A stretch of DNA of 33,624 nt from an uncultured virus (IMG/VR IMGVR_UViG_3300030330_001767) (lineage: Duplodnaviria; Heunggongvirae; Uroviricota; Caudoviricetes), in IMG/VR virus record IMGVR_UViG_3300030330_001767; one strand, given 5' to 3'. Made by a program: the position numbers and the translations under genes. Positions 3,489 through 33,184 of the stretch are shown piece by piece. The notes beneath the pieces are model-generated. The model had not been told where the DNA came from and searched no databases. It was given only the letters and a program-made list of their open reading frames with translations. The stretch's first letter is position 1, and every line of letters starts with the position of its first letter.

Positions 3489-3490
3489 GT

Positions 3491-5997: not shown

Positions 5998-6056
5998 TTC
6001 TTCTTCCTCCTTTTCTTGTATTCCTCTTTCAATTTACGATACTTTTCCCACTTCAT
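5994..6056 (-). CDS. 20-aa basic micropeptide (not in ORF track)
   Basis: Hand translation MKWEKYRKLKEEYKKRRKKK. AGGTGA SD; ATGA overlaps at both ends. Confidence 0.4.
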   Translation of the reverse strand: MKWEKYRKLKEEYKKRRKKK

Positions 6057-7590: not shown

Positions 7591-7999
7591 TTCTTATTCT
7601 CTCCATATATTTTTTTCTTCTTTCTATTGCGTTCAATTTTTCAACGGTTGAACTACTACCTTTACGAACCTTCTGTCTTTCTTGAATTACCTTATCTATT
7701 TCTTCTAAGTTGTTGACAATACACTTGTTACACTTACAACCTTCTTCGCAAGAAGGTGCATCAGGTGCATCAATCAAACCCATTTTAGGCATTCCTTTTT
7801 CTACGTATACCTGATAGCCTATTACATATTTAGGTTCATCAAACATGATAGTTTGGGCTACAAAATCTTTCTTCAATTCAACTGCTTGTCTTGCTGATTT
7901 TATTTCAGGTGGTCTGAACTTCCGATAGAGTTTGATTAACTTATCAACTCTTTTTTGATTAGACCATGAAAGGGATTTGTATATTCTTTTCAAAACCAT
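7574..7999 (-). CDS. Hypothetical protein with a Cys cluster
   Basis: 141-aa ORF containing CEEGCKCNKC. Confidence 0.6.
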   Translation of the reverse strand: MVLKRIYKSLSWSNQKRVDKLIKLYRKFRPPEIKSARQAVELKKDFVAQTIMFDEPKYVIGYQVYVEKGMPKMGLIDAPDAPSCEEGCKCNKCIVNNLEEIDKVIQERQKVRKGSSSTVEKLNAIERRKKYMERIRNEQTK

Positions 8000-8910: not shown

Positions 8911-9273
8911 TTACATCACTATCCTATACAAATATTTACTTTTTCTCTGTGCATTACTTTCAGGTATTAACAAATCCTTTCTATCTAAATTGTGTTGAGC
9001 AACAATTCTACTAACAATGTAGTATGTGTTTTTCTTTGGTGCGGGTAATCCGAAAATATTACCTCTCCACCCAACTGAATTATACCATCCACTTTTTTCA
9101 AATATGGGTATTTTTATTCCATCTTGTTCTATAACCTCTACCTTTTCCGTAGATTGATTATTCATTCTCGCCCACATTTTACTCGGTTCTATTACGACTT
9201 TCTTTTCTACATTATTAACAATCTGATGTATTACGATATCATGGTTAGTTAGATTGACTAACTTTACCATCAT
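8911..9273 (-). CDS. Viral protein of unknown function lying between the polB halves
   Basis: NLTNHDI...GLPAP...YYIVSRIVA...RKDLLIP resembles a family of small uncharacterised phage proteins (recalled, not searched); visibly AT-rich. Confidence 0.7.
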   Translation of the reverse strand: MMVKLVNLTNHDIVIHQIVNNVEKKVVIEPSKMWARMNNQSTEKVEVIEQDGIKIPIFEKSGWYNSVGWRGNIFGLPAPKKNTYYIVSRIVAQHNLDRKDLLIPESNAQRKSKYLYRIVM

Positions 9274-10961
9274 AACTCCCTCACTTTGAATGCCGCTTCT
9301 CTAATGGCCTCTCTTGCGCTTGCGGTGATACTTGCGGCTAAATCAACATTAGCCCAACCAAATCCCTGATACGCAATGATACCGTAAAAAGAAGCCATCA
9401 ATCTCTTTACCGCTAACTGGTTGTTATTCCACTTGTTGAAGTCAGACTTATCTTTAGCGTTCTTCATGTTTTTCTTGTATTCATTACGTAGTTCTTTGAG
9501 TTCTAATACCGCTTTGGGTAAAAGACCCAACTTATCTGTTTTGAAATACATCATGTTCTCTTGCTTAACGTCAGAGAAATCTCTTGGTGTAGCAAGATTA
9601 ACTGCAAACTCTGTCGGTTCAAGTGAAATTGTTTCCCATGAGATATTCCTTGACACAATCATGCTTGGATATAGACCCGCAAAATCAAATGCGGCAACAT
9701 TGTTGTGAATACCATTTGTGCCTTCTGTGAGGGGATTGTATATCATAGCCCCGTCATAGTCCCTGCGTTCTCCTTTGCGCCCCGTAGGGGCTTTCCAAGA
9801 GGCATTACGCATGAAATATATTCCACCCATGTTACTCGCATAGAAACAAGCATCGAATGGAGCAATCAAAAGTTTCTGCAAAGCCAAAACCGCATCAATA
9901 CAATGGTTGTTCTCATCAATCTTGACTAACAACTCAACGTCTTTCTCAGCGTATTCTAAGTAAGTGTCTGCATCTTCTGTCCATGCTTTCTTGAAGAAGT
10001 CATTCTTATCAGGGAACTTTTCACTGACTAACTTCTTCTCGCCTAAGATTGTCTCTGAAACATAGTCCAATGCAAGAGAAGGTAATGTTCCCTTCTGTGC
10101 ATCATTCCATTGACGCTCAAAGACCAAATCTAAGGCTACTGTGATAACACCCTTGATTGGTTGATTGATAGGGGAGAACCTTTCTACTCTTGACTTCCAA
10201 ATAGTAGGTGAATTGTTCTTCCAACCAATACCTGTAATCTCACCAAATGGTGACATCACTCTTGGGTCTAACTCATGATGAACCATACGTGTCAATAACT
10301 TAGGCAAGTCGAACTTCCAACCGAACCATGAAACAAGCATATCAGGTTCTTTGTCAACAAACATAGCCATGAATCTTGAAAGCATATGTCTTTCACTTCT
10401 ACACTCAATCAGTACACTTGACTCGTTATCATCAAACCTATCTCCTTTGAAATCCACTACATAGGGATACCAAACAAATGTGTAATACTTCTCATCAAAG
10501 TTATCATAAACTACGATACAAGTAATCTGCTCATCGTAATCACCGCCTTGCATCCACTCCATATCCCAATACCATTTTCTTGGTCTTTGTTCAGGAATAG
10601 CATCAAGTTCATCAACTGCATATCTGTAATAATGAGCAACATCTGCTTCGTATGTATCAATACCCATCTTATCTAAAGCAACTCTAATGTCCTTAGCATA
10701 TCTTGGATGGTTAGGAGTCCATGTAACTTTGTCTAAAGGTTCACCGTAGAGATTGTTTTCTTCTGTTCTCTCAGAACTGAGTTCTAATCTAAAACTACCA
10801 TGATTGTCTTTACAGGGTATAGATACGCTTCTATCAATAGCCCCTCTATCAACATAGAAGTATGGTCTAAACTCTGAATGAGATACAACCTTAGATTGAA
10901 TCTCACCATCGGTGTTTCTCCACCTTACTCCTATTCCTTCTTCTAAATTACATATTATCAT
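9270..10961 (-). CDS. polB: Family B DNA polymerase, N-terminal part (exonuclease, motifs A and B)
   Basis: YEAD, WDME (ExoI), FDLP (ExoII), YAEKD (ExoIII), DFAGLYPS (motif A), KRLMASFYG (motif B). Confidence 0.95.
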   Translation of the reverse strand: MIICNLEEGIGVRWRNTDGEIQSKVVSHSEFRPYFYVDRGAIDRSVSIPCKDNHGSFRLELSSERTEENNLYGEPLDKVTWTPNHPRYAKDIRVALDKMGIDTYEADVAHYYRYAVDELDAIPEQRPRKWYWDMEWMQGGDYDEQITCIVVYDNFDEKYYTFVWYPYVVDFKGDRFDDNESSVLIECRSERHMLSRFMAMFVDKEPDMLVSWFGWKFDLPKLLTRMVHHELDPRVMSPFGEITGIGWKNNSPTIWKSRVERFSPINQPIKGVITVALDLVFERQWNDAQKGTLPSLALDYVSETILGEKKLVSEKFPDKNDFFKKAWTEDADTYLEYAEKDVELLVKIDENNHCIDAVLALQKLLIAPFDACFYASNMGGIYFMRNASWKAPTGRKGERRDYDGAMIYNPLTEGTNGIHNNVAAFDFAGLYPSMIVSRNISWETISLEPTEFAVNLATPRDFSDVKQENMMYFKTDKLGLLPKAVLELKELRNEYKKNMKNAKDKSDFNKWNNNQLAVKRLMASFYGIIAYQGFGWANVDLAASITASAREAIREAAFKVREL

Positions 10962-11119
10962 TATTTCACATTTCCTTGATTGTTTCTTGTTATCTTGTTA
11001 AAGTACCTTTCAGCACTCATTGCAATTCGTGGGTACGTTGTCATACCCATACTCTTTCCTGTATCTGTCTGTCCAGTACCGCTAGTTTGTAGCCAAACGA
11101 ACTTTATTCTTTCATCCAT
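10961..11119 (-). CDS. 52-aa microprotein resembling the helicase P-loop segment (not in ORF track)
   Basis: Hand translation MDERIKFVWLQTSGTGQTDTGKSMGMTTYPRIAMSAERYFNKITRNNQGNVK. GGTGA SD; its stop overlaps the polB start (TAATG). Confidence 0.55.
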   Translation of the reverse strand: MDERIKFVWLQTSGTGQTDTGKSMGMTTYPRIAMSAERYFNKITRNNQGNVK

Positions 11120-11123
11120 ATAA

Positions 11124-11903
11124 TCACCTATTACCGATGTATGGTGCTTTCAATAGCATTCTTGTTGGTGTTACAAACAATACTGGTGCATCGTCATTGA
11201 TGTAAAGACGAACTGTTCCCTTGAGGAACTTAGATACTTGACCATTGAACTCAACAGTAGCATCTTCACCTTCTGACATTGTAGTTTCAATGATTACATC
11301 AAACTTATCGGTTACGCTTTTTCTACTTGACATGATTAGACTTTCTTCATCTTCATCATAATCAAACTTGTAACGTGCAAGTCCAACAACATCACAACTC
11401 TTACTTGCTGAAAGCATCTCATCTTCTGAGATAACTACCTCAGTCTTGTATTCTGTTTTACCGAAAGTAGGCATACCTTCCCCCATACTGCGTAGTGTCT
11501 TGTGGAAGACTTCTCCTCTACTAATCATATTGGGTGTTGGGTGTTCTTCTACCAACGGCACTCTTGCGATTGAACTGTCATTCTTTATGGTAAGATAATC
11601 TCTAAATTCTAAAGTGACTATTCCAGTAAATCCCTTGAGATACTTTACAGTCTTCTCAATATCAATTACAGTCCTACCACTTCTGAACAACTGTCCCTCT
11701 TCAAGTCTCAAGCGTATAACTGCAATGTTGATGTTATCTGCATTGTATGCTACAAGGTAATCTCCTTCTACTTTCAACACTGCATAGTTGCTAACCTGAC
11801 CATTCTTGCAGGTATCTCCACTATTGTATTTGCCTTTAACGGCAATCTCTTCAATTAATTCTCTAAATGTATTTACTTCTAATTCTATTTGCATTTTAAT
11901 CAT
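11124..11903 (-). CDS. pcn: PCNA-like DNA sliding clamp
   Basis: About 259 aa with a beta-rich clamp-like pattern and C-terminal LLKAPYI (cf. PCNA LAP). Adjacent to polB; RFC and PIP boxes are present in the window. Start is likely 11903 or 11894; the track start is 12014. Confidence 0.75.
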   Translation of the reverse strand: MIKMQIELEVNTFRELIEEIAVKGKYNSGDTCKNGQVSNYAVLKVEGDYLVAYNADNINIAVIRLRLEEGQLFRSGRTVIDIEKTVKYLKGFTGIVTLEFRDYLTIKNDSSIARVPLVEEHPTPNMISRGEVFHKTLRSMGEGMPTFGKTEYKTEVVISEDEMLSASKSCDVVGLARYKFDYDEDEESLIMSSRKSVTDKFDVIIETTMSEGEDATVEFNGQVSKFLKGTVRLYINDDAPVLFVTPTRMLLKAPYIGNR

Positions 11904-11913
11904 CTCTTTTGGT

Positions 11914-11952
11914 GAAGATATCCCTACCCCTTTCGGAGTAGGAGATACCTTC
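11914..11952 (-). promoter_or_regulatory. GNRA-capped RNA hairpin just upstream of PCNA
   Basis: Minus strand gaaggtatctcctactcc-GAAA-ggggtagggatatcttc forms 17 bp (two G-U pairs, one bulge). Confidence 0.6.
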
Positions 11953-11959
11953 TTTGTGT

Positions 11960-12253
11960 TCATCCCCAAATGAACTTCTGTTCTTTTCTCATTTTCAGTA
12001 TTTTTTCTGAACATGAAGGGCAGAAAAATTGGTTCTTACCCAATGTTTTCAAGAAACGCCAATCCGCTACCTTTGCTACTTGCTTTATTTCGGTAGAGTT
12101 ACGTGCATCAATAACTTTCAATGCAACGTTTCTATTACAACTTACTCTCTGTCCTTTCGTAATAGAAGGATGACCAACACACTCAATGTGTAGCATTGTT
12201 TTGTATTGCTTCACCCTATCAACTTTCATCCAGTCTTCTTTCTCATCCATCAT
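11960..12253 (-). CDS. Hypothetical, putative Zn-binding protein
   Basis: 97 aa with C..H..C and CPSC. Confidence 0.6.
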   Translation of the reverse strand: MMDEKEDWMKVDRVKQYKTMLHIECVGHPSITKGQRVSCNRNVALKVIDARNSTEIKQVAKVADWRFLKTLGKNQFFCPSCSEKILKMRKEQKFIWG

Positions 12254-18599: not shown

Positions 18600-20156
18600 C
18601 TAAGACATCATTTGTATGTCTAAAATCGAGTTACAGTCTTTCGGGAACTTGTCGTTGCGTATCTTTACAACTCTTGGAAATCGTAGGCCATATTCACCTT
18701 CGCTATCTTGAGTAATAACGTCACAAGTAACCTCAAGAACAATTCTCGGTAAGATATAGAATGTATCTCCTGAATACTTCTCTACAACTTTCTTCAATTC
18801 AGTTGTAAGGTATGCTAAATCTCCATCGGAAAGACCTGTTCCTACTGAACCAACAGATTTGTAGCCACTGGACGAAGATGAATCCAATACAGATATACCA
18901 AATGTACCAAACACATTTCTTCTCTTACCATCACCATATTGAGCAGATGTAATAACAACATCCAAATCAATTCGTGGTGGTTTGTGTTTCAACATTGAAT
19001 TACTTCTCTTCCCCGCTTGATAACTAGCATTCAAATCTTTAATCATTATACCTTCAAATCCATCATTGATAGCCATGTTATATGCTCTTTCTACATCGCC
19101 GTCAGTATACGCTCTTACTCTATTCCATGAAGGAAAATCGGGTAAGTGCATTAATCTTTCACGATATCTTTGTTCAATCAACGAGACATCCATGTAATGT
19201 AGAATATCAAATATCACCATATGAACTGGACAATCTTCAACTGCTTTCTCTATATCTTTGGAATGTACTCTTGTTGCTAATTTCTTATGTTCAGCCGGAA
19301 CATCAGAACCTTGACTCACGACTGGATAAATCTCAGTATCTAAAATGAAATTATGAGCGTTAAATGATTTAACTAAATCTACAACATCAGGGTATTGGTA
19401 TGTTACAATCTTACCTTTACGATTGAAGATTATCACACTATCCCTATCTCTATGAATCTGATATCTATTACCATCATACTTTACATCTATAATGTAGTCA
19501 TCAGGTAACTTGTATGGTGCTTGGTGTTTCTTTGCTAATGAGCAAGGAATGAACTTACCGACACCTGTTATACAAGGCGGTTCATTTCCATTTGACAAAT
19601 ACCTGTATACTTCAACAGGACTGTGAAACTTCACATACTTATCAATATCAGAATTAGGGAATCTTCTCTTCAACAGACTTGTTACCGCTTTTTCACCCAC
19701 ACCGTTTCTTGGGTTTCTCAACCAATATCTTAGAAACCATTTCAATTCAAGAGCAGACATATCATTTGTTCTTTCGTTGAAAACAGTATAGGCATCACTA
19801 TTGATAGAAGAACAGTCAGTAACTAACAAACTATGAAGTTCTTTCAATGTTATATTAGAATCAATAGTGAACTCATCAGATAGAAATTGCATCATTCCCT
19901 CAGACAAATCTCCCCAAATGTCTGCTTGAGTTTTTACCTCATCTTCAAACATACCAAAGGAATTGGCAATCCAAGTTATTGCTCTTTTCTGACCAATGTT
20001 ATTCACATCATATTCTAAAGATAATATCTCAAGAAGAATATGCGGGTCTTTGAAGGCATTCAAGGATTCATCAATAATACGAATCTTGTCTACTGTTCTA
20101 TTTTGTTGTTCTATTGCTTCACACATTCTTGCAAATCTAATCAGACTCATTCTCAT
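18600..20156 (-). CDS. lig: ATP-dependent DNA ligase
   Basis: KYDGNR (motif I), ILDTEI, FDIL, EGIMIK, LRFPR. Confidence 0.95.
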   Translation of the reverse strand: MRMSLIRFARMCEAIEQQNRTVDKIRIIDESLNAFKDPHILLEILSLEYDVNNIGQKRAITWIANSFGMFEDEVKTQADIWGDLSEGMMQFLSDEFTIDSNITLKELHSLLVTDCSSINSDAYTVFNERTNDMSALELKWFLRYWLRNPRNGVGEKAVTSLLKRRFPNSDIDKYVKFHSPVEVYRYLSNGNEPPCITGVGKFIPCSLAKKHQAPYKLPDDYIIDVKYDGNRYQIHRDRDSVIIFNRKGKIVTYQYPDVVDLVKSFNAHNFILDTEIYPVVSQGSDVPAEHKKLATRVHSKDIEKAVEDCPVHMVIFDILHYMDVSLIEQRYRERLMHLPDFPSWNRVRAYTDGDVERAYNMAINDGFEGIMIKDLNASYQAGKRSNSMLKHKPPRIDLDVVITSAQYGDGKRRNVFGTFGISVLDSSSSSGYKSVGSVGTGLSDGDLAYLTTELKKVVEKYSGDTFYILPRIVLEVTCDVITQDSEGEYGLRFPRVVKIRNDKFPKDCNSILDIQMMS

Positions 20157-20361
20157 TCACCTTGTTTTTTATTTTTATTAACGCTTTCAACATTGTATCT
20201 AATTCGTCCATGTTGATTCTGATGCCCTTTTTGGTGGGCTTACCATCACTATACCATCTCACATCTACAACTTCTGTCTTCCAGTAATTACCTGTTTTAA
20301 CCAGTAATTCCATTGTAGCGTTTCTTGGTATTCTCGCTATTGTTTCAAATTTATCACTCAT
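20137..20361 (-). CDS. PC4/YdbC-like ssDNA-binding protein
   Basis: VDVRWY...PTKKGI signature. Confidence 0.8.
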   Translation of the reverse strand: MSDKFETIARIPRNATMELLVKTGNYWKTEVVDVRWYSDGKPTKKGIRINMDELDTMLKALIKIKNKVNENESD

Positions 20362-22379: not shown

Positions 22380-22883
22380 TCATTCCTCCTCTTGGTGTTT
22401 CTCAGGGTCTTGTTCCAACAACCCATAGTATACTTTCTTTGCACGAATTGTTTCAGGCTCGTATGCTAAATACTGATTGTCTCCAATAACAATTGCAGAC
22501 TTTAGTATAGGCTTCCATGTCTTGATTGTCTTCCAGTCTGTTCCACTGAAATACGCACTACCAAATGGATGTGTGTGAATCCAACACTTAATCGGTATCC
22601 TCATTGGTGCGCCATTCACTAATTCATCTTCATGTCCTTCAAAGGATACGAATGATGCTGAACCACTGCTGATATACAAATCATCTTTATCATCAACGAT
22701 AACTTGCACTTCTTTGTCTCCAAGTATCTCAGTTGACATCTTCCATATCGCCCAAATGAACGCTTCTGTTTCGTTGTTTGGATATAGGAACTCTATCTTA
22801 TCTTTGAAGTCTTCAAAGACTTCTCGGATATGTCCCTTCCAATCAAACTCTTCCTGTTCTGTTAATTCTATTTCTTCTTCCAT
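22380..22883 (-). CDS. JAB/JAMM (MPN+) metallopeptidase
   Basis: Complete JAMM motif: E (KEVQ)...HTHPFGSAYFSGTD (HxHx7Sx2D). Start MEEEI at 22883; the track start is 22940. Confidence 0.9.
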   Translation of the reverse strand: MEEEIELTEQEEFDWKGHIREVFEDFKDKIEFLYPNNETEAFIWAIWKMSTEILGDKEVQVIVDDKDDLYISSGSASFVSFEGHEDELVNGAPMRIPIKCWIHTHPFGSAYFSGTDWKTIKTWKPILKSAIVIGDNQYLAYEPETIRAKKVYYGLLEQDPEKHQEEE

Positions 22884-22885
22884 GT

Positions 22886-23035
22886 TTATTCCTCTTCTGT
22901 TTTTTTCATTTTTGCTGACGCTTTCTCTAATTGTATCCAATCGGAAAACGTTAGACTTTCATTTATTGTTCCATCAAGTAATGCTTGTTCATAAGAATCT
23001 CGCATTTCCTGAAACTTTCTCCCCATCTTTCCCAT
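22886..23035 (-). CDS. 49-aa hypothetical protein (not in ORF track)
   Basis: Hand translation MGKMGRKFQEMRDSYEQALLDGTINESLTFSDWIQLEKASAKMKKTEEE; fills the gap; GGTGG SD. Confidence 0.55.
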   Translation of the reverse strand: MGKMGRKFQEMRDSYEQALLDGTINESLTFSDWIQLEKASAKMKKTEEE

Positions 23036-23269
23036 TCAAGCACCACCCATTTCTTCGGCTATCAAGTCTTGAGCATTCTCAAACTCATGGTATGCCTTGT
23101 GACCTGCAATGAAACCACCTGCATGACGTTTAGTTCCTAAGAACTCTTCACCACAAACAGGACAAGTAACCTTGACTATCTCTGCTTGCTCATAAAATCC
23201 ATCAGTGGATATTGCAGTTATCATTTCGCCTATCATATCTTCATCTAAGTTTTCTATTTCTTCGCTCAT
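23036..23269 (-). CDS. Small Zn-finger protein
   Basis: CPVC...H...H, C2H2-like. Confidence 0.65.
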   Translation of the reverse strand: MSEEIENLDEDMIGEMITAISTDGFYEQAEIVKVTCPVCGEEFLGTKRHAGGFIAGHKAYHEFENAQDLIAEEMGGA

Positions 23270-23511
23270 GCTTTCACCTTCAAATAGTGTCTCAGTGGTT
23301 TTATTACTTTAGGTGTCGAGACAACTTCTTTCACCTTCTCCTGTTTTGGTACGGAGATACCGGAAAGGACTCTCCTTCTATACTGTTCCTTCCACATAAC
23401 TTGAACACAATCATTGCAGAACCTTCTGCTATCTGCCAAATGTTCGGGAACAGGCTCATCCTCTTTACCACAAAGAGTCTTCCCCAATATAGAGAAATGA
23501 ATATACTTCAT
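23266..23511 (-). CDS. Hypothetical Zn-binding protein
   Basis: H...TLCG...CNDC. Confidence 0.6.
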   Translation of the reverse strand: MKYIHFSILGKTLCGKEDEPVPEHLADSRRFCNDCVQVMWKEQYRRRVLSGISVPKQEKVKEVVSTPKVIKPLRHYLKVKA

Positions 23512-23702
23512 TCCTTAGCACCTTCTTCTATTGTTTTCATTATGTTCTTGTCAGCATATCCGTAAGAGACATCCATACCAAATCCTATTTCGTGCATTAA
23601 CTGCATTAGCATGACCATTCTATCTTCAATGTGATGTGGTGGGTCACATGGTTCACCATCTACATCATACTGAACTGCTATTGTGTAGTATTTCTTACTC
23701 AT
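23508..23702 (-). CDS. Hypothetical protein
   Basis: 64 aa with ATGA overlaps. Confidence 0.55.
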   Translation of the reverse strand: MSKKYYTIAVQYDVDGEPCDPPHHIEDRMVMLMQLMHEIGFGMDVSYGYADKNIMKTIEEGAKE

Positions 23703-23944
23703 GTCTCTTTCTCCTTGTATGCGGGATGTTTCTTTGGTAGACGATGTAATCTACTTGTGATTAGTTTCTGTATTTGACGTGCAATTTCTCCACTCCCATC
23801 TTCCCAACGCTTTACCAATCTAGGGTATTTATCATCGTCTTTGTATTGGTGAACCATCTTCTCTTCTAATTCAGACAAGTCAATCTTATCCATTAGATGT
23901 TTAAGCACTTCATATTCAACGTGTATCTTTGAACCTGCTCTCAT
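23699..23944 (-). CDS. Hypothetical protein
   Basis: Start MRAGS at 23944 via an ATGA overlap; the track start is 23953. Confidence 0.6.
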   Translation of the reverse strand: MRAGSKIHVEYEVLKHLMDKIDLSELEEKMVHQYKDDDKYPRLVKRWEDGSGEIARQIQKLITSRLHRLPKKHPAYKEKET

Positions 23945-24117
23945 GGTGTCCACTCCAATACACTAACCCATTCTCTTGTCACTGTTAACGTCACATATTG
24001 TCGTTCATCTTTCCTTTTTCCCATTTCCCTCATAGAGTAATAGATTCTCTTGTCTGCATAATGCTCATCAAGAAAACTATCTATCTCTTCGGGATACCCA
24101 ATCAATTGTATTATCAT
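23941..24117 (-). CDS. 58-aa hypothetical protein (not in ORF track)
   Basis: Hand translation MIIQLIGYPEEIDSFLDEHY...WVSVLEWTP; ATGA overlaps at both ends. Confidence 0.55.
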   Translation of the reverse strand: MIIQLIGYPEEIDSFLDEHYADKRIYYSMREMGKRKDERQYVTLTVTREWVSVLEWTP

Positions 24118-24407
24118 TCTTCTTCACTCCAGTTGACTAAAGCCTCCATTACCATCTCAGGAGTAACTGTTTCATTTTCTTCAACTAACTTATATCGAAT
24201 TTGTCGTTCTCTAAGTAAACCTTTACCAATAGCAATTGCTTGTTGTGTGTCACCGAGTCCCAATCTTGTAGGTATAACAATAAGACAATCACAAACATCA
24301 CAACATCTACCTTCAAACGGTGCGGCGTTGTTTCCTTCGCTCCAAAACACCTTTCCGTTGTGGTCTTTTCTCTGCTCAATTTCTCTTTCGCATAAACTGC
24401 ATTTCAT
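24114..24407 (-). CDS. Cys-rich hypothetical protein
   Basis: CSLC...GNNAAP...RCCDVC. Confidence 0.65.
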   Translation of the reverse strand: MKCSLCEREIEQRKDHNGKVFWSEGNNAAPFEGRCCDVCDCLIVIPTRLGLGDTQQAIAIGKGLLRERQIRYKLVEENETVTPEMVMEALVNWSEEE

Positions 24408-24571
24408 ATTATCATCTCCAAAATAAATGCAATGTTGATTATAACTGATACACCTAACATACCTACAACCTTAGCATATCTCTCTTGTGTTTCTACAAGA
24501 CTTTCATGTAAGCGAGAGTAGACATCAAAATATGTGTGTAGTTGTAAAAAGTCTTCTTTGGTTTCTGTCAT
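24404..24571 (-). CDS. 55-aa tail-anchored membrane protein (not in ORF track)
   Basis: Hand translation MTETKEDFLQ...VVGMLGVSVIINIAFILEMII; ATGA overlaps at both ends; directly downstream of the E1 gene. Confidence 0.55.
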   Translation of the reverse strand: MTETKEDFLQLHTYFDVYSRLHESLVETQERYAKVVGMLGVSVIINIAFILEMII

Positions 24572-25158
24572 ACATTCAACACCATCTTATCTGCAACGTT
24601 CTCATTATCAACGAACCATCTCTGTATCCACTGAGAAGCAACACCTGCAATTGCAATCTGCATACAGTTCACTTGTTCAGGGCTACCATCCCAATCTCCT
24701 CCTTGACAGGAGAACGAACCTTCTGCACCTGCTAACAAATCATCAACAAGATTCTCGTTAACCTTGTAAGAGATTAGTGCGGCGTTTCTGCCTTGCGCTC
24801 TCAAATCTAACCACTTGAGTTTAGCGTCATCACCGTATCCTTGACGGTACAACATTCTTCTCACGGCTAAGTTATCTGCACAACAGATTACCAAGTCGTA
24901 TCCTTTCAGTTGCTTTTCTACTAAAACCAAAAAGGGTTGCTCATCTACTAGTTTCAAACCATTGACCTTCAATCTTTCATTGACGGCACTTACTTTAGTT
25001 TGACCAACTGTATCAGGTATGAAGTTCTGATATGTCAGATTCTTCTCTTCTAACTTATCATCGTCAAATACTGTTATGTCGTATATTCCTATTCGGGAAA
25101 GGAAGTCAATCAAATAACTACCAATTCCACCTGTTCCTATTATCATTATCTTTCTCAT
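24568..25158 (-). CDS. ThiF/MoeB/E1-like adenylyltransferase (Ubl-activating enzyme)
   Basis: IIGTGGIGS, DDDKLEEKNLTYQ, VGQTK and CADN motifs; candidate catalytic Cys in SFSCQ; no CxxC Zn site. Confidence 0.9.
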   Translation of the reverse strand: MRKIMIIGTGGIGSYLIDFLSRIGIYDITVFDDDKLEEKNLTYQNFIPDTVGQTKVSAVNERLKVNGLKLVDEQPFLVLVEKQLKGYDLVICCADNLAVRRMLYRQGYGDDAKLKWLDLRAQGRNAALISYKVNENLVDDLLAGAEGSFSCQGGDWDGSPEQVNCMQIAIAGVASQWIQRWFVDNENVADKMVLNV

Positions 25159-26099
25159 TGTGTATTCCTCATTACTATTACATTTTGCATTATTTCATCC
25201 AATCCATATAGATGAATATTCTTTCTTTCTATTCCCAACATCTCAGAAATGGTATCAGTGTGAGTGCGTAGCGTTACCTCTGATACACTGAAATATTGTT
25301 TTACGTCTATCTGTCTTATTGGTGTGTCTGTTAGTTTACCTGCTATCCAAAGTGTTGTTGCTAATTGACTATCAGCAAACCTCAAATCTCTTTCATTGTA
25401 TTTGTTCTGAATGAACTCTACAAAGTTGAAAAAATCTCTTCTATCTCTAATAGAAACACAGTTTGCTTCAAACCAATCTAAGAACCCTGTTACCATGTTA
25501 GGTATATTTCTCTCAGCAAAGATGTGAGACTTCCTGTAAAACTTAGCAATCTTCTTCGCAGTTCTTACAACTCTCTTCATCTCTACTCCACTAGTTTTAA
25601 CAAAATCTTTCAGTGAAACATTACCATTATCATTCAAGATAAAGTATGCTAAACCTGCTGCCCTGTCTTCTATTGAGTGTCCCCGAAGTATTTGATGTTG
25701 CATCAACCGTTGATACAGATACACCACATGGTCAGTGTCTATCGCATCACCACTTTTATGTGGCGACATAAACATAACACACATACGATGTCCTTGAGCA
25801 TCAGTTCTACTATGATATCTTGTATCAGAAGTAACTCTTCTATTCAGTAAACCCAACCTATGCTTTCTCGTATGGTTACTTTGGTCATGCCAACCACCTA
25901 CAAAAGAACCCAGTGTTTTGTTGTTATCTTTACTATGATTCCAATGTTGTTGATATCCACTATCAGAAGTAACTTGTTTAAGACCAACTCTTTCCTCAAA
26001 TATATCGCAGTTCAACACTAAACCACAATCAGAACAAATAGTGTAGCCTAATCGCTCATCAAACTCAGTTGAAAATGAACCACATTCAGAACACTTCAT
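25155..26099 (-). CDS. tfb: Transcription factor B (TFB/TFIIB) homolog
   Basis: Zn ribbon CSECGS...ICSDCGLV, RGHSIE, two cyclin-like repeats, VSEVTLR recognition helix. Confidence 0.85.
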   Translation of the reverse strand: MKCSECGSFSTEFDERLGYTICSDCGLVLNCDIFEERVGLKQVTSDSGYQQHWNHSKDNNKTLGSFVGGWHDQSNHTRKHRLGLLNRRVTSDTRYHSRTDAQGHRMCVMFMSPHKSGDAIDTDHVVYLYQRLMQHQILRGHSIEDRAAGLAYFILNDNGNVSLKDFVKTSGVEMKRVVRTAKKIAKFYRKSHIFAERNIPNMVTGFLDWFEANCVSIRDRRDFFNFVEFIQNKYNERDLRFADSQLATTLWIAGKLTDTPIRQIDVKQYFSVSEVTLRTHTDTISEMLGIERKNIHLYGLDEIMQNVIVMRNTQ

Positions 26100-27406
26100 T
26101 GTGAAGCCTCCTTCTTACGGGCAATGTATAGGTTTTCCTTTTCCTTAGTCCATGAATTGAGTTTTGACCTATCTAAACGATAGTTAGGGTTTTCTCCACG
26201 TTTTTCTGCTTCACTCACTTTATCCCTGATAGTGTATATCTGATTAGCAGTTGATACATCATTCATCAACGCCAATGCCCTTGCAGTTAGTTGGTCGCCA
26301 ATACTTGAGTTTCTATGGATGTTATCAATGCAGATTGGGCCATGAATTTTATGACCTTTCCATGTATTACTTCCAACCACTGTTGTTTTATTACCAATCA
26401 TGTAAGTGTTTACATTTTGATGTCCTTGTTTCATACCCTTCCTTTCATCAGTTACAACCCAATCAGCAACTTTGCCTCTAACAAAGAGAGCCTTATTCAA
26501 AGGATTCTTGAATTGAACTAAACTAATCTGAGGATATTCGGCATCCATCTCATGTAGTAGTTGGGTTGCTCTATCTTCAACCATGTTCTGCTTTCTGTTT
26601 TGCATTAACCAAGCGACACATAGTTTTCTTTGGATATCTGTTGGTTCTTGACCCATAAGCAATGTCCATAATTTGTCGGGTGTTGCTCTATACCAAACCT
26701 TAGATTTAGATTGATTATGTCTAAATGTATTCAAGAACACATTCAAATCTTTCAGAGTAATAGCACCCCAAACACCTTCTGATATTTCTAACGCACATTC
26801 ATCATTGCTAATCAACCTTGTATTGATTAACACTTCTTGTTTTGTTCCCTCATGATAGAAATGATATGGAGAACGATTCTCAATAGCATGGAGAACATTA
26901 GGAGGAAAGTGAATCACCTTCTCTATGTAATCATCCATTGTGTCCACATTACGAACAAATGCTCCCCTCATGATTATCTTAGCAAGAGTAACTGCCAAAT
27001 CCTTCTTTGGTATTCTCTTACCATCTATATGGTGTTGAGTTCCCTTTCTACCATATACAATAAAACACTCTCCATCTTTGTATTTGAATCCCAAAGTACA
27101 CATATAATTCTCATTACTTGTTTTTGGAATGAAATTCAATGCAACACTATCAGCAAGTAACTTCTGAACAGGATTATCGTATTTACCGTGTTGTAAAGAT
27201 GGTCTTGATGATTGAAGTGAAAACTCACCAAACTGGTTTAGGTTCTTTGGTTTGTAATATACCTTTCTTTCACCATAAGCAGTGTTTAACATCACTCGAT
27301 GATACAAGGATGTAAAGTGCTTCTTCTGTCCTGTTCTGAACAAGAAACTACTCGTTACCCAACCCTGTTGGTCGCCCACTGATGGGATTCTGTATTTTAT
27401 TTTCAT
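26096..27406 (-). CDS. 436-aa uncharacterised protein; C-terminal GPICIDN motif (candidate E2-like domain)
   Basis: Start MKIKY at 27406 after GGAGG (track 27523); HQNV...GPICIDN...GDQL..RALALMND; ATGA overlap with tfb. The confidence refers to the CDS; the function is speculative. Confidence 0.7.
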   Translation of the reverse strand: MKIKYRIPSVGDQQGWVTSSFLFRTGQKKHFTSLYHRVMLNTAYGERKVYYKPKNLNQFGEFSLQSSRPSLQHGKYDNPVQKLLADSVALNFIPKTSNENYMCTLGFKYKDGECFIVYGRKGTQHHIDGKRIPKKDLAVTLAKIIMRGAFVRNVDTMDDYIEKVIHFPPNVLHAIENRSPYHFYHEGTKQEVLINTRLISNDECALEISEGVWGAITLKDLNVFLNTFRHNQSKSKVWYRATPDKLWTLLMGQEPTDIQRKLCVAWLMQNRKQNMVEDRATQLLHEMDAEYPQISLVQFKNPLNKALFVRGKVADWVVTDERKGMKQGHQNVNTYMIGNKTTVVGSNTWKGHKIHGPICIDNIHRNSSIGDQLTARALALMNDVSTANQIYTIRDKVSEAEKRGENPNYRLDRSKLNSWTKEKENLYIARKKEASQ

Positions 27407-27707
27407 TATTATTTTCCTCCTTTTTCCAATAATCAGTATCACCATAATTGTGATAATACCAACAGTCTCTTTCGACTGCTTCTGCAAGTTCTTCCATTGA
27501 TTTGAAAGTTGAGTGCCCCCCAACTACAATACGTTTCATTCCCCTGTAAAGATAACTGTAAGTGCAGTTACCTTCCTTGAATAGTGAAAACTTGTAATGT
27601 AGTTGTGAAACTTGCGGGACACTGCAACTTTGTTTCATCTTGTTTTCGTAAAATAAGAAATCCTTCTGTTTAATCAGGATATCAGATTTCACAAACTCCA
27701 CCTGCAC
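27348..27707 (-). CDS. Hypothetical protein
   Basis: ORF fills the gap between nrdJ and the 436-aa gene; start uncertain (an ATG at 27638 is possible). Confidence 0.45.
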   Translation of the reverse strand: MQVEFVKSDILIKQKDFLFYENKMKQSCSVPQVSQLHYKFSLFKEGNCTYSYLYRGMKRIVVGGHSTFKSMEELAEAVERDCWYYHNYGDTDYWKKEENNNENKIQNPISGRPTGLGNE

Positions 27708-29574
27708 AGGCTAGTTCGCCTTGTAGGTTGGTGGAGTCCTCGTACTCTTTAACCTCACTCAAATCAATTGAGTGAAGTTTACTAACAAGTACATTATATT
27801 CGTCTTCCGATATCTCTTCCATCGGTGCTTGTTCGTATGTTCCTCCGTCATATGGTAGGAAAGCCATACCGTTGTAGTATTCTCTGTTATTCCAAAGCCA
27901 TTCGGTCACTACTTTCCACTCTGCTTCATGAACATATACTGTTGCTGATACATTGTGAGAATTATTTCCACGAACATGACCATTCTTCACCCATTCTTTT
28001 GAAACTACTTTGATTCTTTCAAGCATACCAATAGCACTTTCATCACTGCGTATGATTGCAGTTTCATCAGGTATCTTTTGTGGAATAGTTAGAACTGCAT
28101 CCCCATATGACATTCTATCATCTTCGATAAGGTCAGGTAGTTTTTCAACAAGATAAGGATATATTGCTTCTCCTTTACCTATACGGATTCTTCTTGCGAA
28201 GTATTCTCCATACCATGCGTGAATACCACTTGATGTGCCTAAAACACAACTTGTTGTTCCGGCAGGTTTGACACAAGTAGTTCTTGCGGCGGAATTGATT
28301 CCTAGACGTTCAGCGAACTCTTGGTTAGTTCCTCTTACTAACTCTGCACCTTTCGACAACCAACTATCTTCTATCTTCTGACTAGCAATACCAGTCATTG
28401 ACACACCGATTAAAGCATCCTTCTCTGTTGTTCTTTTCCATATACCTCTAAGATAGTGGAAGTCAGTGTATGTTGCTTGTAGTGTTCCTAAGAAAGATGC
28501 TGCCTCAACTCTACTGAGGAAGTCTTCTCCCGATTCTACACTTGATACATTTACTTCACAAAGATTGCAGAATTGATATGGTCTAAGAGCAATCTCACAA
28601 CAAGGGTTAGTTCCCCAATCCTTGTCATTAGAGAGATAAATTCCGGGTTCACCACTACCACTCTTTTCTATCTTCTTCATTAATTTCTTGAATGTGTATT
28701 CGTCTATCTTATGACGTAGTAGAACTGCTGAGTTATTCGCCCTACCTCTCTGTGGGTTTAGTTCCCACCAGTTACCTGATTTACATAGAGCCATTTGTTC
28801 ATCATCAGCACTGAATAGGCTGATTAACGCCGCTCTACGAATACCACCTGCTAACACTGAATCAGCAATATGGCAAATCATATCGTGAACTTGTATAGAA
28901 GTCATCTTATGACCATTAGGCATATCTCTCAACATACCTTCAATGATTGTAAGACATATTCTAAGTGGTTCAGGGCCGGGTGCTTTTCCACCGCTTGTTT
29001 TCAGCCTTGCACCTTTTGGTCTTATATCTGAATAATCGAATCTTGGGCTTGCAGTTCTCTTGCCAGTGTAACTGTTGAAAAGAACCTTGATTGCGTCAGC
29101 CCAACCTTCTATTGAATCTTGAATCTTATATCTGTAAGTTCTATCAGATAGTGGTTGTTGAATATGTGGTAGTTTAGCCACATGATGTTTCTGTACTGAA
29201 TAACCTACTCCCGTTCCTCCAAGAAGCAAGAACATTGCCTCACTGAAAGATGTAAGATTATCAATTGGCATGTATGCACAATTGTATATTCTGTTTGGTG
29301 ATAGTTCAACTGGTTTACCTGCAAACTGCATTGAGCGCATTGAAGGTAATACTTTCTTCGGTATTACAAATTCATCATAGACAGAATTTATCATTGCTTC
29401 GATAACAGTTTTGTTAACTTCGGTGAGTGCCATTGTATTGATATGCTTAATGTGCATATCTCGATTTCTGTTACAAATCTCTTCCCAAGTTTCCTTTCTT
29501 TGTTCTTCTTCATTCCATTTTGCGTATTTGGTATTAACCACTATTTCTGATAAAACTTCATTTCCTAATTTCAT
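27682..29574 (-). CDS. nrdJ: Class II (adenosylcobalamin-dependent) ribonucleotide reductase
   Basis: PSMR, YNC, GGTGVG, TNPCCEI, KPAGT and C-terminal CAGGVC; no beta subunit in the window. Start MKLG at 29574; the track start is 29610. Confidence 0.9.
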   Translation of the reverse strand: MKLGNEVLSEIVVNTKYAKWNEEEQRKETWEEICNRNRDMHIKHINTMALTEVNKTVIEAMINSVYDEFVIPKKVLPSMRSMQFAGKPVELSPNRIYNCAYMPIDNLTSFSEAMFLLLGGTGVGYSVQKHHVAKLPHIQQPLSDRTYRYKIQDSIEGWADAIKVLFNSYTGKRTASPRFDYSDIRPKGARLKTSGGKAPGPEPLRICLTIIEGMLRDMPNGHKMTSIQVHDMICHIADSVLAGGIRRAALISLFSADDEQMALCKSGNWWELNPQRGRANNSAVLLRHKIDEYTFKKLMKKIEKSGSGEPGIYLSNDKDWGTNPCCEIALRPYQFCNLCEVNVSSVESGEDFLSRVEAASFLGTLQATYTDFHYLRGIWKRTTEKDALIGVSMTGIASQKIEDSWLSKGAELVRGTNQEFAERLGINSAARTTCVKPAGTTSCVLGTSSGIHAWYGEYFARRIRIGKGEAIYPYLVEKLPDLIEDDRMSYGDAVLTIPQKIPDETAIIRSDESAIGMLERIKVVSKEWVKNGHVRGNNSHNVSATVYVHEAEWKVVTEWLWNNREYYNGMAFLPYDGGTYEQAPMEEISEDEYNVLVSKLHSIDLSEVKEYEDSTNLQGELACAGGVCEI

Positions 29575-29685
29575 TTTCTCTCCCTCTCTTGAGTGTGTTG
29601 AAGAGGGCATCTCACCCTCATGACATCTTTCCCGATGCTAGGATTATGTAGGCTTAACCTGAGCCTAATAATAGTTACCACTCAT

Positions 29686-29696
29686 ACATATAAATA
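29686..29696 (-). promoter_or_regulatory. Candidate archaeal TATA box upstream of nrdJ
   Basis: Minus strand TATTTATATG in the 165-bp gap between the Ubl gene and nrdJ. Confidence 0.35.
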
Positions 29697-29739
29697 CCCA
29701 TGAATGGGTTACGTTGTTCCGACAGTTTACTTGTTAAAT

Positions 29740-29943
29740 TTAACAAGAGCCACCGACAATAGCAGGGACAAGGTTAACAGAATCAACGGTTGACCAATCA
29801 ATGTTTGTCACATTTTCTCGGCTTACCATATCTCCATCAACATACACCCAATGAGTTGGGTGGTCTGCTATCTGTTCAATCATCTCAGCACTGGTAACTT
29901 CCAGTTCTGTGTGGCCTGTTTCATTCAATATTCTCAGTTTCAT
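29740..29943 (-). CDS. Ubiquitin-like (ThiS/MoaD/SAMP-type beta-grasp) protein in pro-form, ending GG-SC
   Basis: 67 aa with VYVDG and D-x-V-x-L-V-PAIVGG, the typical end of ThiS/MoaD/SAMP proteins, plus a 2-residue extension; GAGGT SD. Confidence 0.8.
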   Translation of the reverse strand: MKLRILNETGHTELEVTSAEMIEQIADHPTHWVYVDGDMVSRENVTNIDWSTVDSVNLVPAIVGGSC

Positions 29944-29970
29944 TTTTATTACCTCTGTTTTGTTTTTTGT

Positions 29971-30225
29971 CTACTGTTGTAGTTGTTGTTGAAGAGTCGC
30001 AATCGTCTTGTTGAGTTCTTGAACTCTACCCGAAAGGACATTTATTGTTTGCTCGTAGTGAGCGCACAATGCCATATACTGTTGCAACTGGCTTATTGCC
30101 TGTTGAGCAGTTTGTTGGAGTTGAGCGTTGTTTGATTGCATTGCCGCAAGAACCTCACCCGCATCCACCTCTTCTTCTGTTTGCACTTCTTCTTTTTCTT
30201 CTTTCTTCTTACTCATTTTTTTCAT
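29971..30225 (-). CDS. Gln-rich coiled-coil protein
   Basis: Acidic N-terminus and heptad repeats. Confidence 0.65.
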   Translation of the reverse strand: MKKMSKKKEEKEEVQTEEEVDAGEVLAAMQSNNAQLQQTAQQAISQLQQYMALCAHYEQTINVLSGRVQELNKTIATLQQQLQQ

Positions 30226-31388
30226 CTCCTATCATTTAATAATGCGTCAATAAACTTCGATGCACTCTCTTTTGTTAGTGAGTCTGTTTCTCCTTCATAG
30301 CCAAGTTTCCTCAGATAATTAACTTGCTTCTCAGTAGCAGGTGTCTCCTCCGCAGTATCGGCAGTATTGTCTGTAAAGAGTATACGCTTTAACCATTCGG
30401 ATTGCTTTTCTGTTGGTTCTGCCCCACGAATGAATCTTCTTTTCATATCTCTAAGGAAGTTTCTTTCCCAATGAGTAGAACCATGTTCATGAGCATCGAA
30501 TACTGGTAGACCAAAGTAAAGACACGCTTCAAGGAACTTACGTTCCCTCCAATCTTCTTCCATAAGACCACGAATCTTATCCTTAATTTCCAAATCAAGA
30601 GTCTCTAGGAACTTCTTCCTGTCCTCAACATACTTATCCTCAAGTTCAATCTGCTCCAAATAGTCATCAATTAGTATAGAGAACAAGTCCATGTCTCTCA
30701 GAAGTTTATCATTGGGATAACCTCTTGTGTTGATTTGAGCCTTCTTATTGTCGGGGTGATTCCATCTCCAAACGATAGAAGCCATCTTGTAATCTTCTCT
30801 ACCATACTTACCTGAACCAGTTTTTCTGATGTAGGTTATAGGGCGATATTCCTTCAAGTCATTATCATAGTATTTCTTTCCAGTTGTTCTTACGTTCAAC
30901 CTCAAATCCATATCCTTGATTTCATTGAATAACTCAGTGAAACTATCACCGTTCTCATCCCACCATGCTTCTTTGATTAGAGTTTCAACGGCTTGTTTTT
31001 TCCATTCCTCAATCTTTTCCTCTGTAATAGCGGATAGTGGTATGTTCAAAGTTTCAGCCATGTGTCTGAGAACCATCCAATTGTTGATACAGGTAGAACC
31101 TACAATCTCCAATGTTCCATTCTCAGTGTTCTCAATCTCAAAGTTGTAAACAATATCCTTACCACAAAGACAGTGATGTGGATGGTTACTTGGGTGGTTC
31201 TCGATAATATGTCTATGGGTTCCATAGACTGTCTTACGCCAAACCCTACCAGTTATCCTCCACTCCTTCTTCGCTTCTTCGTAATCGTCTGATACAGACA
31301 AATCAAGAAGCCTTCTTGTTAGTGCCGGATAATGGTGGCTTGTTTCCGCAGTGTTATCTACCATGTGTAAATCAGTTACTCTATTCAT
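30222..31388 (-). CDS. Uncharacterised protein with a CxCG...GSxC Zn-binding domain and C-terminal TEKQ helical repeats
   Basis: HCLCGKDI...VGSTCI; PTEKQSEWLKRI and ATEKQVNYLRKLG...ASKFIDAL. Confidence 0.7.
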   Translation of the reverse strand: MNRVTDLHMVDNTAETSHHYPALTRRLLDLSVSDDYEEAKKEWRITGRVWRKTVYGTHRHIIENHPSNHPHHCLCGKDIVYNFEIENTENGTLEIVGSTCINNWMVLRHMAETLNIPLSAITEEKIEEWKKQAVETLIKEAWWDENGDSFTELFNEIKDMDLRLNVRTTGKKYYDNDLKEYRPITYIRKTGSGKYGREDYKMASIVWRWNHPDNKKAQINTRGYPNDKLLRDMDLFSILIDDYLEQIELEDKYVEDRKKFLETLDLEIKDKIRGLMEEDWRERKFLEACLYFGLPVFDAHEHGSTHWERNFLRDMKRRFIRGAEPTEKQSEWLKRILFTDNTADTAEETPATEKQVNYLRKLGYEGETDSLTKESASKFIDALLNDRR

Positions 31389-32653: not shown

Positions 32654-33184
32654 TCAACAAACAACCGCCATTTGAGTGTACCACTCAGGTGGATAGTGAG
32701 GCCACTTCCATGAAGCGAACCACTTCTTGTCATGAATGTAATAGGCACGATACTTTTCAACAACTGAAAGGTCATCGAAGTTCTCAACCTTTTGCCTACA
32801 TAGTTGGTTGTGGGATATAGCAACTGCAAAGGGTGTTAGCCCAATGTCAGGAAGCAACTCCTCAACCTTATCGAAAACATCGGAATACTCTTCCAATGTC
32901 TTTGCGACTTTGTGTGTGTTACCAGTATACCAGTAACGTTTTGCGTATGTGTCAAGCAATCCTTCAAGATGGCTTCTCAACCATTGGAAGTTTTGTCTTG
33001 ACTCTCTAGCCCAAATAGTGCAAGGATGGTTTAACATTACAGGGTCATAAGGACTATCCAATCCTAAGTGGTCTGCAATGGTGGACATCATTTGCATTGA
33101 TTCAAGGGGCATCTTCACGGAATGTTTGTCTATTACCAAACTTGCCGCAACTTTCGGGTCTTCATCAAGAATGAATATATTCAA
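32654..33184 (-). CDS. Pyrimidine-dimer DNA glycosylase / endonuclease V-like protein
   Basis: MNIFILD...DKHSVKMPLE..QM...NHPCTIWAR...YRAYY, the pattern of the phage DenV-like family. Confidence 0.75.
   Translation of the reverse strand: MNIFILDEDPKVAASLVIDKHSVKMPLESMQMMSTIADHLGLDSPYDPVMLNHPCTIWARESRQNFQWLRSHLEGLLDTYAKRYWYTGNTHKVAKTLEEYSDVFDKVEELLPDIGLTPFAVAISHNQLCRQKVENFDDLSVVEKYRAYYIHDKKWFASWKWPHYPPEWYTQMAVVC

Follow-up and report, generated by a model that had tools for sequence, protein, structure and literature searches.

Results

Three genes of a probable ubiquitin-like system in a magrovirus-like replication module

The DNA analysed here is IMG/VR record IMGVR_UViG_3300030330_001767, a stretch of 33,624 nucleotides from an uncultured virus of the Caudoviricetes, called the window throughout. 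Its minus strand, on which all its long open reading frames (ORFs) lie, encodes a small ubiquitin-like protein (Ubl), a compact E1-like enzyme of the ThiF family and a JAMM/MPN+ metallopeptidase (JAB) (Table 1). A first-pass annotation, made from the sequence letters, had grouped these genes into a conjugation system of an archaeal virus. An ORF check recovered all three, and the Pfam content, together with a near-complete relative (G105, described below), identified the stretch as the replication module of a magrovirus-like, head-tailed archaeal virus, in agreement with the proposed origin. The best explanation of the observations that follow is that Ubl, E1 and JAB are one functional unit, a Ubl system without an E2.

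The viral Ubl, E1 and JAB proteins

The Ubl of 67 amino acids (aa) matched no Pfam family above threshold (ThiS, E 0.037, 15 bits, under the cut-off of 22.5), and its profile found nothing meaningful by sequence in the PDB (best E 0.14). A structure was modelled with AlphaFold2 (AF2) from an alignment (A1) of 15 of the 21 distinct viral Ubls, near-duplicates and two calls with truncated starts being excluded. The model (pLDDT 81) has the secondary structure b-b-a-b-b-h-b, with residues 64-67 disordered. All Foldseek matches listed were ubiquitin or NEDD8 (best E 2.6e-3, probability 0.89-1.0, TMq 0.38-0.52). A wide VIA-align search against representatives gave a best Z of 5.1 (Fubi) and Z values of 4.1-4.9 for MoaD, ISG15, a bacterial Ubl, ThiS, TtuB, CysO, SAMP1 and Urm1; values this low are common, so the support for a beta-grasp is moderate. 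The beta-grasp fold suspected at first pass is thus predicted by AF2 and accompanied by matches from both structural searches. Residues G64-G65 were invariant in 15 of 15 aligned sequences, as were G10-H11-T12 and H28-P29-x-H31-W32. The conserved VGG is followed by one or two variable residues (SC, Y, C, IR, NQ, SL, L, IN), the window Ubl having two, SC.

The E1 gene, whose start overlaps the stop of a TFB-like gene, encodes a protein matching Pfam ThiF (PF00899) at E 8.3e-18 and 64.8 bits (cut-off 28.1), over profile positions 22-130 of 238 only. Eighteen of the 29 distinct viral E1s were aligned after exclusion of near-duplicates (A2). Invariant residues were G8xG10G11xG13, D32, D34, K55, D95-N96, R100 and C151, and D95-N96 aligns to the 'ctDN' of MoeB (Mg-binding Asp of the (T)DN motif). 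The nucleotide-binding motifs, at first described as intact, are so for GxGGxG and D95-N96 but not for the NLxRQ motif, in which the Arg is replaced (see Discussion). C151 is part of an FSCQ motif in 18 of 18 viral E1s, and SCQ is kept in the host forms described below; Cys151 is, from the alignment, the candidate catalytic residue. The enzyme has only four cysteines (C92, C93, C151 and C165) and no CxxC pair; E1s of the MoeB/ThiF/UbaA type have two CxxC zinc pairs and frequently a rhodanese domain at the C-terminus. Neither a rhodanese domain nor an E2 domain was found in it with Pfam.

The best PDB matches of the E1 profile were Cap2 (5.5e-10), MoeB (1.6e-9), UBA5 (2e-9) and MccB (2.9e-9), all over the N-terminal half of the query only, with weaker matches to PaaA (1.5e-4) and BubCD (2.2e-4). 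The AF2 model (pLDDT 70.8, with low-confidence stretches at 122-134, 144-156 and 186-196) resembled, over the whole predicted domain, UBA5 (Foldseek E 1.8e-8, TMq 0.60), Cap2, MoeB and MccB. NCBIfam scores stayed under the cut-offs: 56 bits for ThiF (4.1e-15, cut-off 159), 46 for MoeB (266) and 40.6 for UbaA (450). In PADLOC, E1-E2 models were matched at 4e-14 in their E1 part only. These profile comparisons, all far under cut-offs, assign the enzyme to no named subfamily. Marine data contain this family in great numbers: of 8000 candidates, 1609 proteins scored at E<=0.001, and the best 120 of these are 187-224 aa long, on contigs of up to ~100 kb.

A predicted complex of E1 with Ubl scored 0.34 (best control 0.01), with at least 92% of contacts shared between runs and a pLDDT of at least 82 for the partner. 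Among solved complexes 116 of 157 passed the mark for such predictions, and among mismatched pairs 2 of 215 did; scores of 0.60 or less were obtained for just 18 of the 157 solved complexes, and for both mismatches that passed. The prediction gives weak support to an E1-Ubl interaction, and memory of solved E1-Ubl complexes may drive the score.

For the JAB gene, the ATG at 22883 agrees with the starts of homologues better than the upstream TTG at 22940. The protein matched Pfam Prok-JAB under the cut-off (E 0.0018, 18.6 bits, cut-off 25). The JAMM motif, E58...H103-x-H105-x7-S113-x2-D116, was invariant in 17 of 17 aligned sequences (A3, 17 of 30 distinct viral JABs, near-duplicates excluded) and is therefore complete, as had been noted. 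In the motif region A3 matched AMSH-LP (5.2e-5), AMSH (1.4e-4) and the Caldiarchaeum Rpn11-like protein (3.8e-4) in the PDB. The motifs of the three proteins are beyond chance, since they are invariant in alignments with a mean column identity of 43-71%.

Co-occurrence and gene order in related viruses

Searching viral contigs with the E1 yielded 38 magrovirus loci. Profile searches, with which tblastn agreed, found JAB in 37 of them and the Ubl in 27. The single locus without JAB ends ~0.5 kb past E1, and all 11 loci without a Ubl end before its expected place, which is upstream of either the reductase or p475; of these 11, L037 is rearranged and uninformative. The three genes thus co-occur in related viruses, as would be expected of the system first proposed, and the missing ones are explained by locus ends. 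All three lie on the same strand in the viral loci. JAB comes after E1 at a distance of -12 to 1716 bp (median 743), and the Ubl gene lies 3.0-5.0 kb upstream of E1. Scans of viral contigs found none of the fusions that occur in the host order.

A homologous system in the host order

All three families occur in the host order, Candidatus (Ca.) Poseidoniales, where the forms of the Ubl include a chromosomal gene of two or three repeats. Among 1.84 billion representative proteins, the Ubl profile found 121 relatives, 96 of them with at least one domain reaching its C-terminal end; 105 of the 111 complete Ubl domains end in GG, and 12 relatives carry two or three head-to-tail domains, each with a terminal GG (polyUbl). 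The last GG is followed by no residue in 9 proteins, by one in 27 and by two in 18. The members of the Ubl cluster are assigned by their sources to Ca. Poseidoniales, on contigs of up to 0.8-2.0 Mb, and a tri-Ubl gene was present in 39 loci of species-representative genomes. Viral and host Ubls have the GH(T/S), W-x-F-x-D and GG motifs in common.

In this lineage the three families are physically joined. Ubl-Ubl-E1 (P0135, L101) and Ubl-E1 (P0155) fusions were found, with ThiF matching at E 1e-17, and in L101 the Ubl-Ubl-E1 gene is followed by JAB. E1-JAB fusion proteins measure 409-422 aa (L096-L098), and tight Ubl-E1-JAB operons are present in L099, L100 and L103. Given these fusions and operons, the three proteins very likely act on one another; the functional link first supposed for the viral genes is thereby tied independently of the viral genomes.

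A chromosomal compact E1 of the viral type was adjacent to JAB in all five host genomes examined, on long contigs with housekeeping neighbours. The same genomes encode a separate MoeB/MoeZ-like E1 of 384-438 aa with a rhodanese domain. The viral E1 profile matched the host compact E1s over their full length (58-85 bits) and the canonical ones in the N-terminal half only (37-38 bits). The viral E1 thus belongs to a distinct subfamily, and because the canonical E1s are MoeB/MoeZ-like and carry a rhodanese, the sulfur-relay E1 is a separate host gene. In an E1-domain tree (18 viral, 14 host compact and 4 canonical sequences, ranges cut by hand, rooted on the canonical E1s), the viral clade (100/100, stem length 4.11) was nested among the host compact E1s; its exact position is unsure because of the long branch.

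Of 101 sampled host-order genomes, each at least 70% complete, 56 were matched by the Ubl profile and 59 by that of JAB. By hand comparison, 55 genomes had both, 1 had the Ubl only, 4 had JAB only and 41 had neither. The JAB profile matched 27 of 201 sampled genomes of the phylum, all of them already in the order sample.

Several further features were observed around the host genes. A domain of ~300 aa follows one or two GG-ending Ubls in P0131, P0171, P0151 and P0165, on Poseidoniales-type contigs of up to 2 Mb; it had no homologue in Pfam or in the window and, for P0171, no usable match in the Protein Atlas. Such a protein could be made as a Ubl fusion, like some ribosomal proteins with ubiquitin, or the domain could be a partner enzyme. 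An acidic, apparently helical protein of ~80 aa ending in (C/K)W(V/A) follows the host JAB in five of five loci (e.g. L095:10700-10942). Its start overlaps the JAB stop, it has no Pfam match, and no viral counterpart was recognised.

A Taw1/TYW1-like radical-SAM gene adjoins the host E1-JAB operon in three of five loci (L091-L095) and lies within 3 kb in the other two; in L101 it stands next to the Ubl-Ubl-E1 gene, on the opposite strand. The host polyUbl gene is two or three genes downstream of a TYW2/Trm5-like methyltransferase gene in 8 of 11 loci (L045-L075), and in 11 of 11 it immediately precedes a gene for an RFC-like AAA+ protein. The proximity of wyosine-pathway genes to two parts of the system may be mere synteny among relatives, or may hint at a connection with tRNA modification.

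The L100 operon lies on a 68-kb contig of a Poseidoniales metagenome-assembled genome (MAG). In the region 1790-12221 of this contig it is preceded, at a distance of three genes, by a gene whose 1357-aa product contains an RNA polymerase domain of the single-subunit, T7 type (PF00940, 5.8e-40), and is followed by an AAA ATPase gene. This contig may represent a different virus or mobile element with the same system.

Searches for E2 and sulfur-pathway genes

Pfam families were sought in 25 ORFs of the window at E<=0.1, in 23 further ORFs at E<=0.001 and in 100 ORFs of G105 at E<=1e-4. No E2 family was detected among the 48 window ORFs or the 100 G105 ORFs, where a very diverged E2 is possible among the unannotated ORFs; the candidate E2 proposed at first pass was therefore not recovered. 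Small ORFs between E1 and JAB (23036-24571) were considered for this role and rejected, since they are not conserved across the viral loci; one of them, p97, is present in some loci only, at varying positions. Genes for thiamine, molybdopterin or cysteine synthesis or for tRNA thiolation were, as first reported, absent from the window at the same E thresholds, and neither the window nor the 96%-complete G105 yielded a gene for a sulfur donor or acceptor. DUF6527 and the NlpC/P60 domain had no match in either.

Genomic context

The other genes identified in the window are listed in Table 1. Its split DNA polymerase is a form known from magroviruses. The closest near-complete relative, G105 (92.4 kb, 96% complete by the tool's figure), has an E1 97% identical to that of the window and further encodes a terminase, a portal, a prohead protease, an SU10-type capsid protein and a tail tube protein. 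The borderline PC4-like match was found again in G105. The gene content matches the description of magroviruses, including the ribonucleotide reductase that the available text ascribes to group B (PMC5434244). Two genes kept in nearly all related loci, p475 and p388, flank the Ubl/reductase region. Their products belong to no Pfam or PHROGs family, and their profiles (A6 and A7) found nothing under E 0.7 in the PDB.

Table 1. Features of the window and the evidence for their assignment.
Feature	Position	Strand	Basis or remark
JAMM/MPN+ metallopeptidase (JAB), 167 aa	22380-22883	-	E...HxHx7SxxD motif
Compact E1-like (ThiF-family) adenylation domain, 196 aa	24568-25158	-	Pfam ThiF
Ubl precursor, 67 aa	29740-29943	-	ORF; C-terminus ...PAIVGGSC
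Split family-B DNA polymerase	9270-10961 and 7990-8910 (within 7990-10961)	-	Pfam
120-aa ORF between polymerase halves	8911-9273	-	
PC4-like protein	20137-20361	-	PC4 transcriptional coactivator, 24.6 bits vs cut-off 25, borderline
p475	26096-27523	-	Gene kept in nearly all related loci
p388	30222-31388	-	Gene kept in nearly all related loci; invariant C73/C75 and W-R-W-N-H-P motif
Pyrimidine-dimer DNA glycosylase, borderline	32654-33184	-	22.9 bits vs cut-off 23
RFC-like clamp loader	Window		Pfam
ATP-dependent DNA ligase	Window		Pfam
ERCC4 and PD-(D/E)XK nucleases	Window		Pfam
Class II-like ribonucleotide reductase	Window		Pfam
TFIIB-like factor	Window		Pfam

Contigs 90-99% like parts of the stretch were present in four marine metatranscriptome runs from two studies and covered, among others, JAB (22623-22980) and the Ubl gene (29497-29998, 29840-30008). 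As RNA libraries may contain DNA, these contigs indicate presence only, not transcription; they cannot rank genes, and uncovered parts carry no meaning. In one contig (run X2, record 10) positions 24487 and 24568 are connected through 8 other letters, so that most of a 55-aa ORF overlapping the E1 stop is omitted; this contig most likely derives from a related strain without that ORF.

Discussion

A proposed sampylation-like system of probable host-lineage descent

We propose, with a probability of roughly 0.6, that Ubl, E1 and JAB constitute an E2-independent, sampylation-like conjugation and processing system used in infection. The beta-grasp protein would be made as a precursor with one or two residues beyond the conserved Gly-Gly, and the JAMM peptidase most likely trims this tail and may later free the Ubl from conjugates. 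The compact E1-like enzyme most likely adenylates the exposed C-terminal Gly with ATP and loads the Ubl onto Cys151. Transfer of the Ubl from there to amino groups on its targets would be direct, on the pattern of archaeal sampylation. Because its genes lie in the replication/early-gene module, the proposed site of action of the set is the infected cell, with host or viral proteins as substrates; the present results point neither to the proteasome nor to host defence, the targets considered at first pass. A GG with a short variable tail, polyUbl genes, N-terminal Ubl fusions, an E1 without rhodanese and the absence of a sulfur-acceptor gene all fit a ubiquitin-like modifier.

The viral set was probably acquired long ago from the cellular system of the host order, with its polyUbl gene and E1-JAB operon. 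The first-pass annotation saw in it the virus's own writer and eraser. The Ubl, E1 and JAB of such a set are indeed present, but since the host order has a homologue the reading moves from a viral invention to a diverged copy of a host-lineage Ubl system kept by the virus. With more doubt than belief, we further suggest that magroviruses run a complete set of tag, writer and eraser of their own, drawn from an unrecognised polyUbl system of Marine Group II (MGII), and re-tag host or viral proteins with it during replication. The adjacency of host polyUbl and RFC-like genes, and the module in which the viral Ubl lies, make replication proteins a possible class of targets, which is pure speculation.

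Relation to known systems

In working mode the closest known system is archaeal sampylation (SAMP1-3/UbaA/HvJAMM1 of Haloferax volcanii). There, too, the Ubl is a beta-grasp protein with GG at its C-terminus, no E2 or E3 accompanies the single E1-like enzyme, and the peptidase is of the JAMM type. Differences are nevertheless clear. Against the UbaA equivalog model (cut-off 450) the viral E1 scores 40.6 bits; the viral enzyme is ~75 residues shorter, CxxC pairs are absent from it, and its NLxRQ Arg is replaced by Tyr or Asn. In addition, the viral Ubl matches no Pfam family above threshold, the gene set is borne by a virus, and the host version is a head-to-tail polyUbl.

The closest match in architecture is to the bacterial '6e'/Bub operons (polyUbl, JAB-E1 fusion, E2-like protein and DUF6527). 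According to the available parts of PMC1779556 and PMC11601596, these also have one to three beta-grasp domains and a peptidase fused or adjacent to a minimal E1 of the homodimeric type, and their JAB frees the Ubl. In contrast to Bub, neither the E2-like protein nor DUF6527 was found here, and the host fusions have the order E1-JAB instead of the JAB-E1 of BubCD. BubCD also lacks the crossover-loop cysteine and takes an oxyester route (PMC11601596, available text), whereas the Cys of SCQ is invariant here, and the sequence match to BubCD is weak (2.2e-4). Bil (BilABCD) and CBASS Cap2/Cap3 resemble the viral set in combining an E1-like adenylation domain with a JAB, Cap2 being the best PDB sequence match of the E1. 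They differ in several respects: of their PADLOC E1-E2 models only the E1 part was matched, PADLOC has no model that fits the viral Ubl or JAB, an E2 was not found, and the viral genes lie in a virus rather than a defence island. QbsE/QbsC/QbsD and CysO/MoeZ/Mec+ share with it a small beta-grasp protein, residues after the GG that are removed by a JAMM peptidase, and an E1-like activator; the E1s of such carriers have a rhodanese and sulfur-acceptor neighbours (PMC1779556, available text), neither of which was found here.

Weighing the evidence

A number of points weigh against a conjugation system. Every biochemical step (conjugate, thioester, cleavage) is inferred from sequence or model, as is the time of action. 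The position aligned to the Arg of MoeB 'nlqRq' is Tyr in 16 of the 18 viral E1s, Asn in 2 and Arg in none, and it is His in the host compact forms compared; in MoeB and ThiF this Arg contacts ATP. The viral E1 begins 7 residues ahead of the Gly-rich loop and lacks the N-terminal segment of other E1s, so its adenylation activity is not assured. We take C151 to be the equivalent of the ThiF/MoeB/UbaA cysteine from its spacing to D95 (56 residues); its region was modelled at a pLDDT below 50, and sequence alignments to solved E1s stop at about residue 102. The Ubl cannot be assigned to the ubiquitin-like or the ThiS/MoaD-like kind, since both gave Z values of 4.1-5.1, and JAB-trimmed sulfur carriers with a GG-xx tail exist (QbsE/QbsD). 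The viral co-occurrence is by itself weak evidence, because the whole block is conserved. In the host, kinship among the sampled genomes deprives the co-occurrence of phylogenetic independence, and some MAG matches may be binned viral contigs, e.g. G091:C31 (E 1.8e-31). Finally, the searches found no E3 either; the absence of E2 and E3 fits sampylation, yet it removes the clearest mark of a conjugation pathway.

The same parts could instead run a sulfur relay, and in the available text of PMC1779556 (rows 4a-4e) the three families do so elsewhere. The adenylated Ubl would be converted to a thiocarboxylate that gives sulfur to a host or viral enzyme (e.g. for tRNA or nucleotide thiolation, or a cofactor), and JAB would only mature the carrier, as QbsD does for QbsE and Mec+ for CysO. 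We regard this scheme as a whole as unlikely. In its favour, ThiF models give the viral E1 its best NCBIfam matches, though far under cut-offs, MoaD, ThiS, TtuB and CysO rank level with ubiquitin-like proteins in the fold search, and no E2 was found in the window or in G105. On the other hand, a rhodanese is missing from the viral E1 but present in the separate MoeB/MoeZ-type E1 of the hosts, and genes for sulfur donors or acceptors were not found in the window or in G105. The Taw1/TYW1-like gene near the host E1-JAB operon in all five loci could speak for a sulfur carrier, but Taw1 is absent from the 38 viral loci and does not transfer sulfur in its reaction. PolyUbl genes and N-terminal Ubl fusions are a habit of ubiquitin-like modifiers, and we know of no sulfur carrier built as head-to-tail repeats or N-terminal fusions.

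The homologues of all three proteins in the host order also raise the possibility of a decoy or antagonist, the viral JAB stripping or mis-processing host polyUbl or its conjugates and the viral Ubl and E1 competing for host partners. The motifs common to viral and host Ubls make cross-recognition conceivable, and the long viral E1 stem nested among the host compact E1s indicates strong divergence after capture. A pure decoy, however, would not need the catalytic and terminal motifs that are invariant in all three viral proteins, and we judge this role quite improbable. A role in tail assembly, for which phages employ a Ubl and a JAB (lambda TAPI/TAPK; PMC1779556, available text), or in the C-terminal adenylation of a peptide that yields a small product, as by MccB and PaaA, which are both among the PDB matches of the E1, is very improbable. 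The genes belong to a replication module, whereas in G105 the structural genes are encoded elsewhere in the genome, on the other strand. The NlpC/P60 domain was not found, and instead of a short peptide the E1 has as its partner a 65-aa protein predicted to fold as a beta-grasp, in which the GG is conserved. Both roles were dropped on gene position and on the nature of the partner.

Previous reports and significance

The viral E1 is already known in outline, as far as the available parts of two reports go: the RaFAH paper names a MoeB/ThiF-family gene as one of the auxiliary genes that archaeal viruses carry most often, with a link to ubiquitination (PMC8276007), and an Asgard-virus preprint describes three E1-like genes in Nidhogg viruses (10.1101/2021.07.29.454249). 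These parts report no viral Ubl, no viral JAB and no host polyUbl/E1-JAB system. The main texts of PMC5434244, PMC10160649, PMC11706807 and PMC8651126 contain no ThiF, JAB, ubiquitin or MoaD, and two supplementary PDFs of PMC5434244 no ThiF, JAB, ubiquitin, MoeB, Mov34 or adenylyltransferase. A literature search linking magrovirus, Poseidoniales or Marine Group II with ubiquitin or ubiquitin-like proteins returned nothing relevant. The viral Ubl, the viral JAB and the host polyUbl/E1-JAB system were thus not found in print, in a search outside of which lay figures, subscription journals and most supplements.

In conclusion, the finding is real: a Ubl/E1/JAMM triad without E2 is present in a new setting, and it is better supported than the sequence alone showed. 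If our reading is true, this would be the first full set of Ubl, E1 and peptidase reported for an archaeal virus, and a lineage-wide polyubiquitin-like gene would be revealed in a euryarchaeal order. The 196-aa E1, without zinc sites, rhodanese or E2, would offer a minimal enzyme for the study of Ubl activation with few parts. Three small soluble proteins would make a cheap test system for E2-free tagging in virus-host conflict beyond eukaryotes and bacteria. The results suggest that protein tagging is part of infection by an abundant ocean virus of marine archaea; on the less probable re-tagging reading, virus and host would contend through Ubl conjugation in archaea, in parallel with the use of ubiquitin by eukaryotic viruses.

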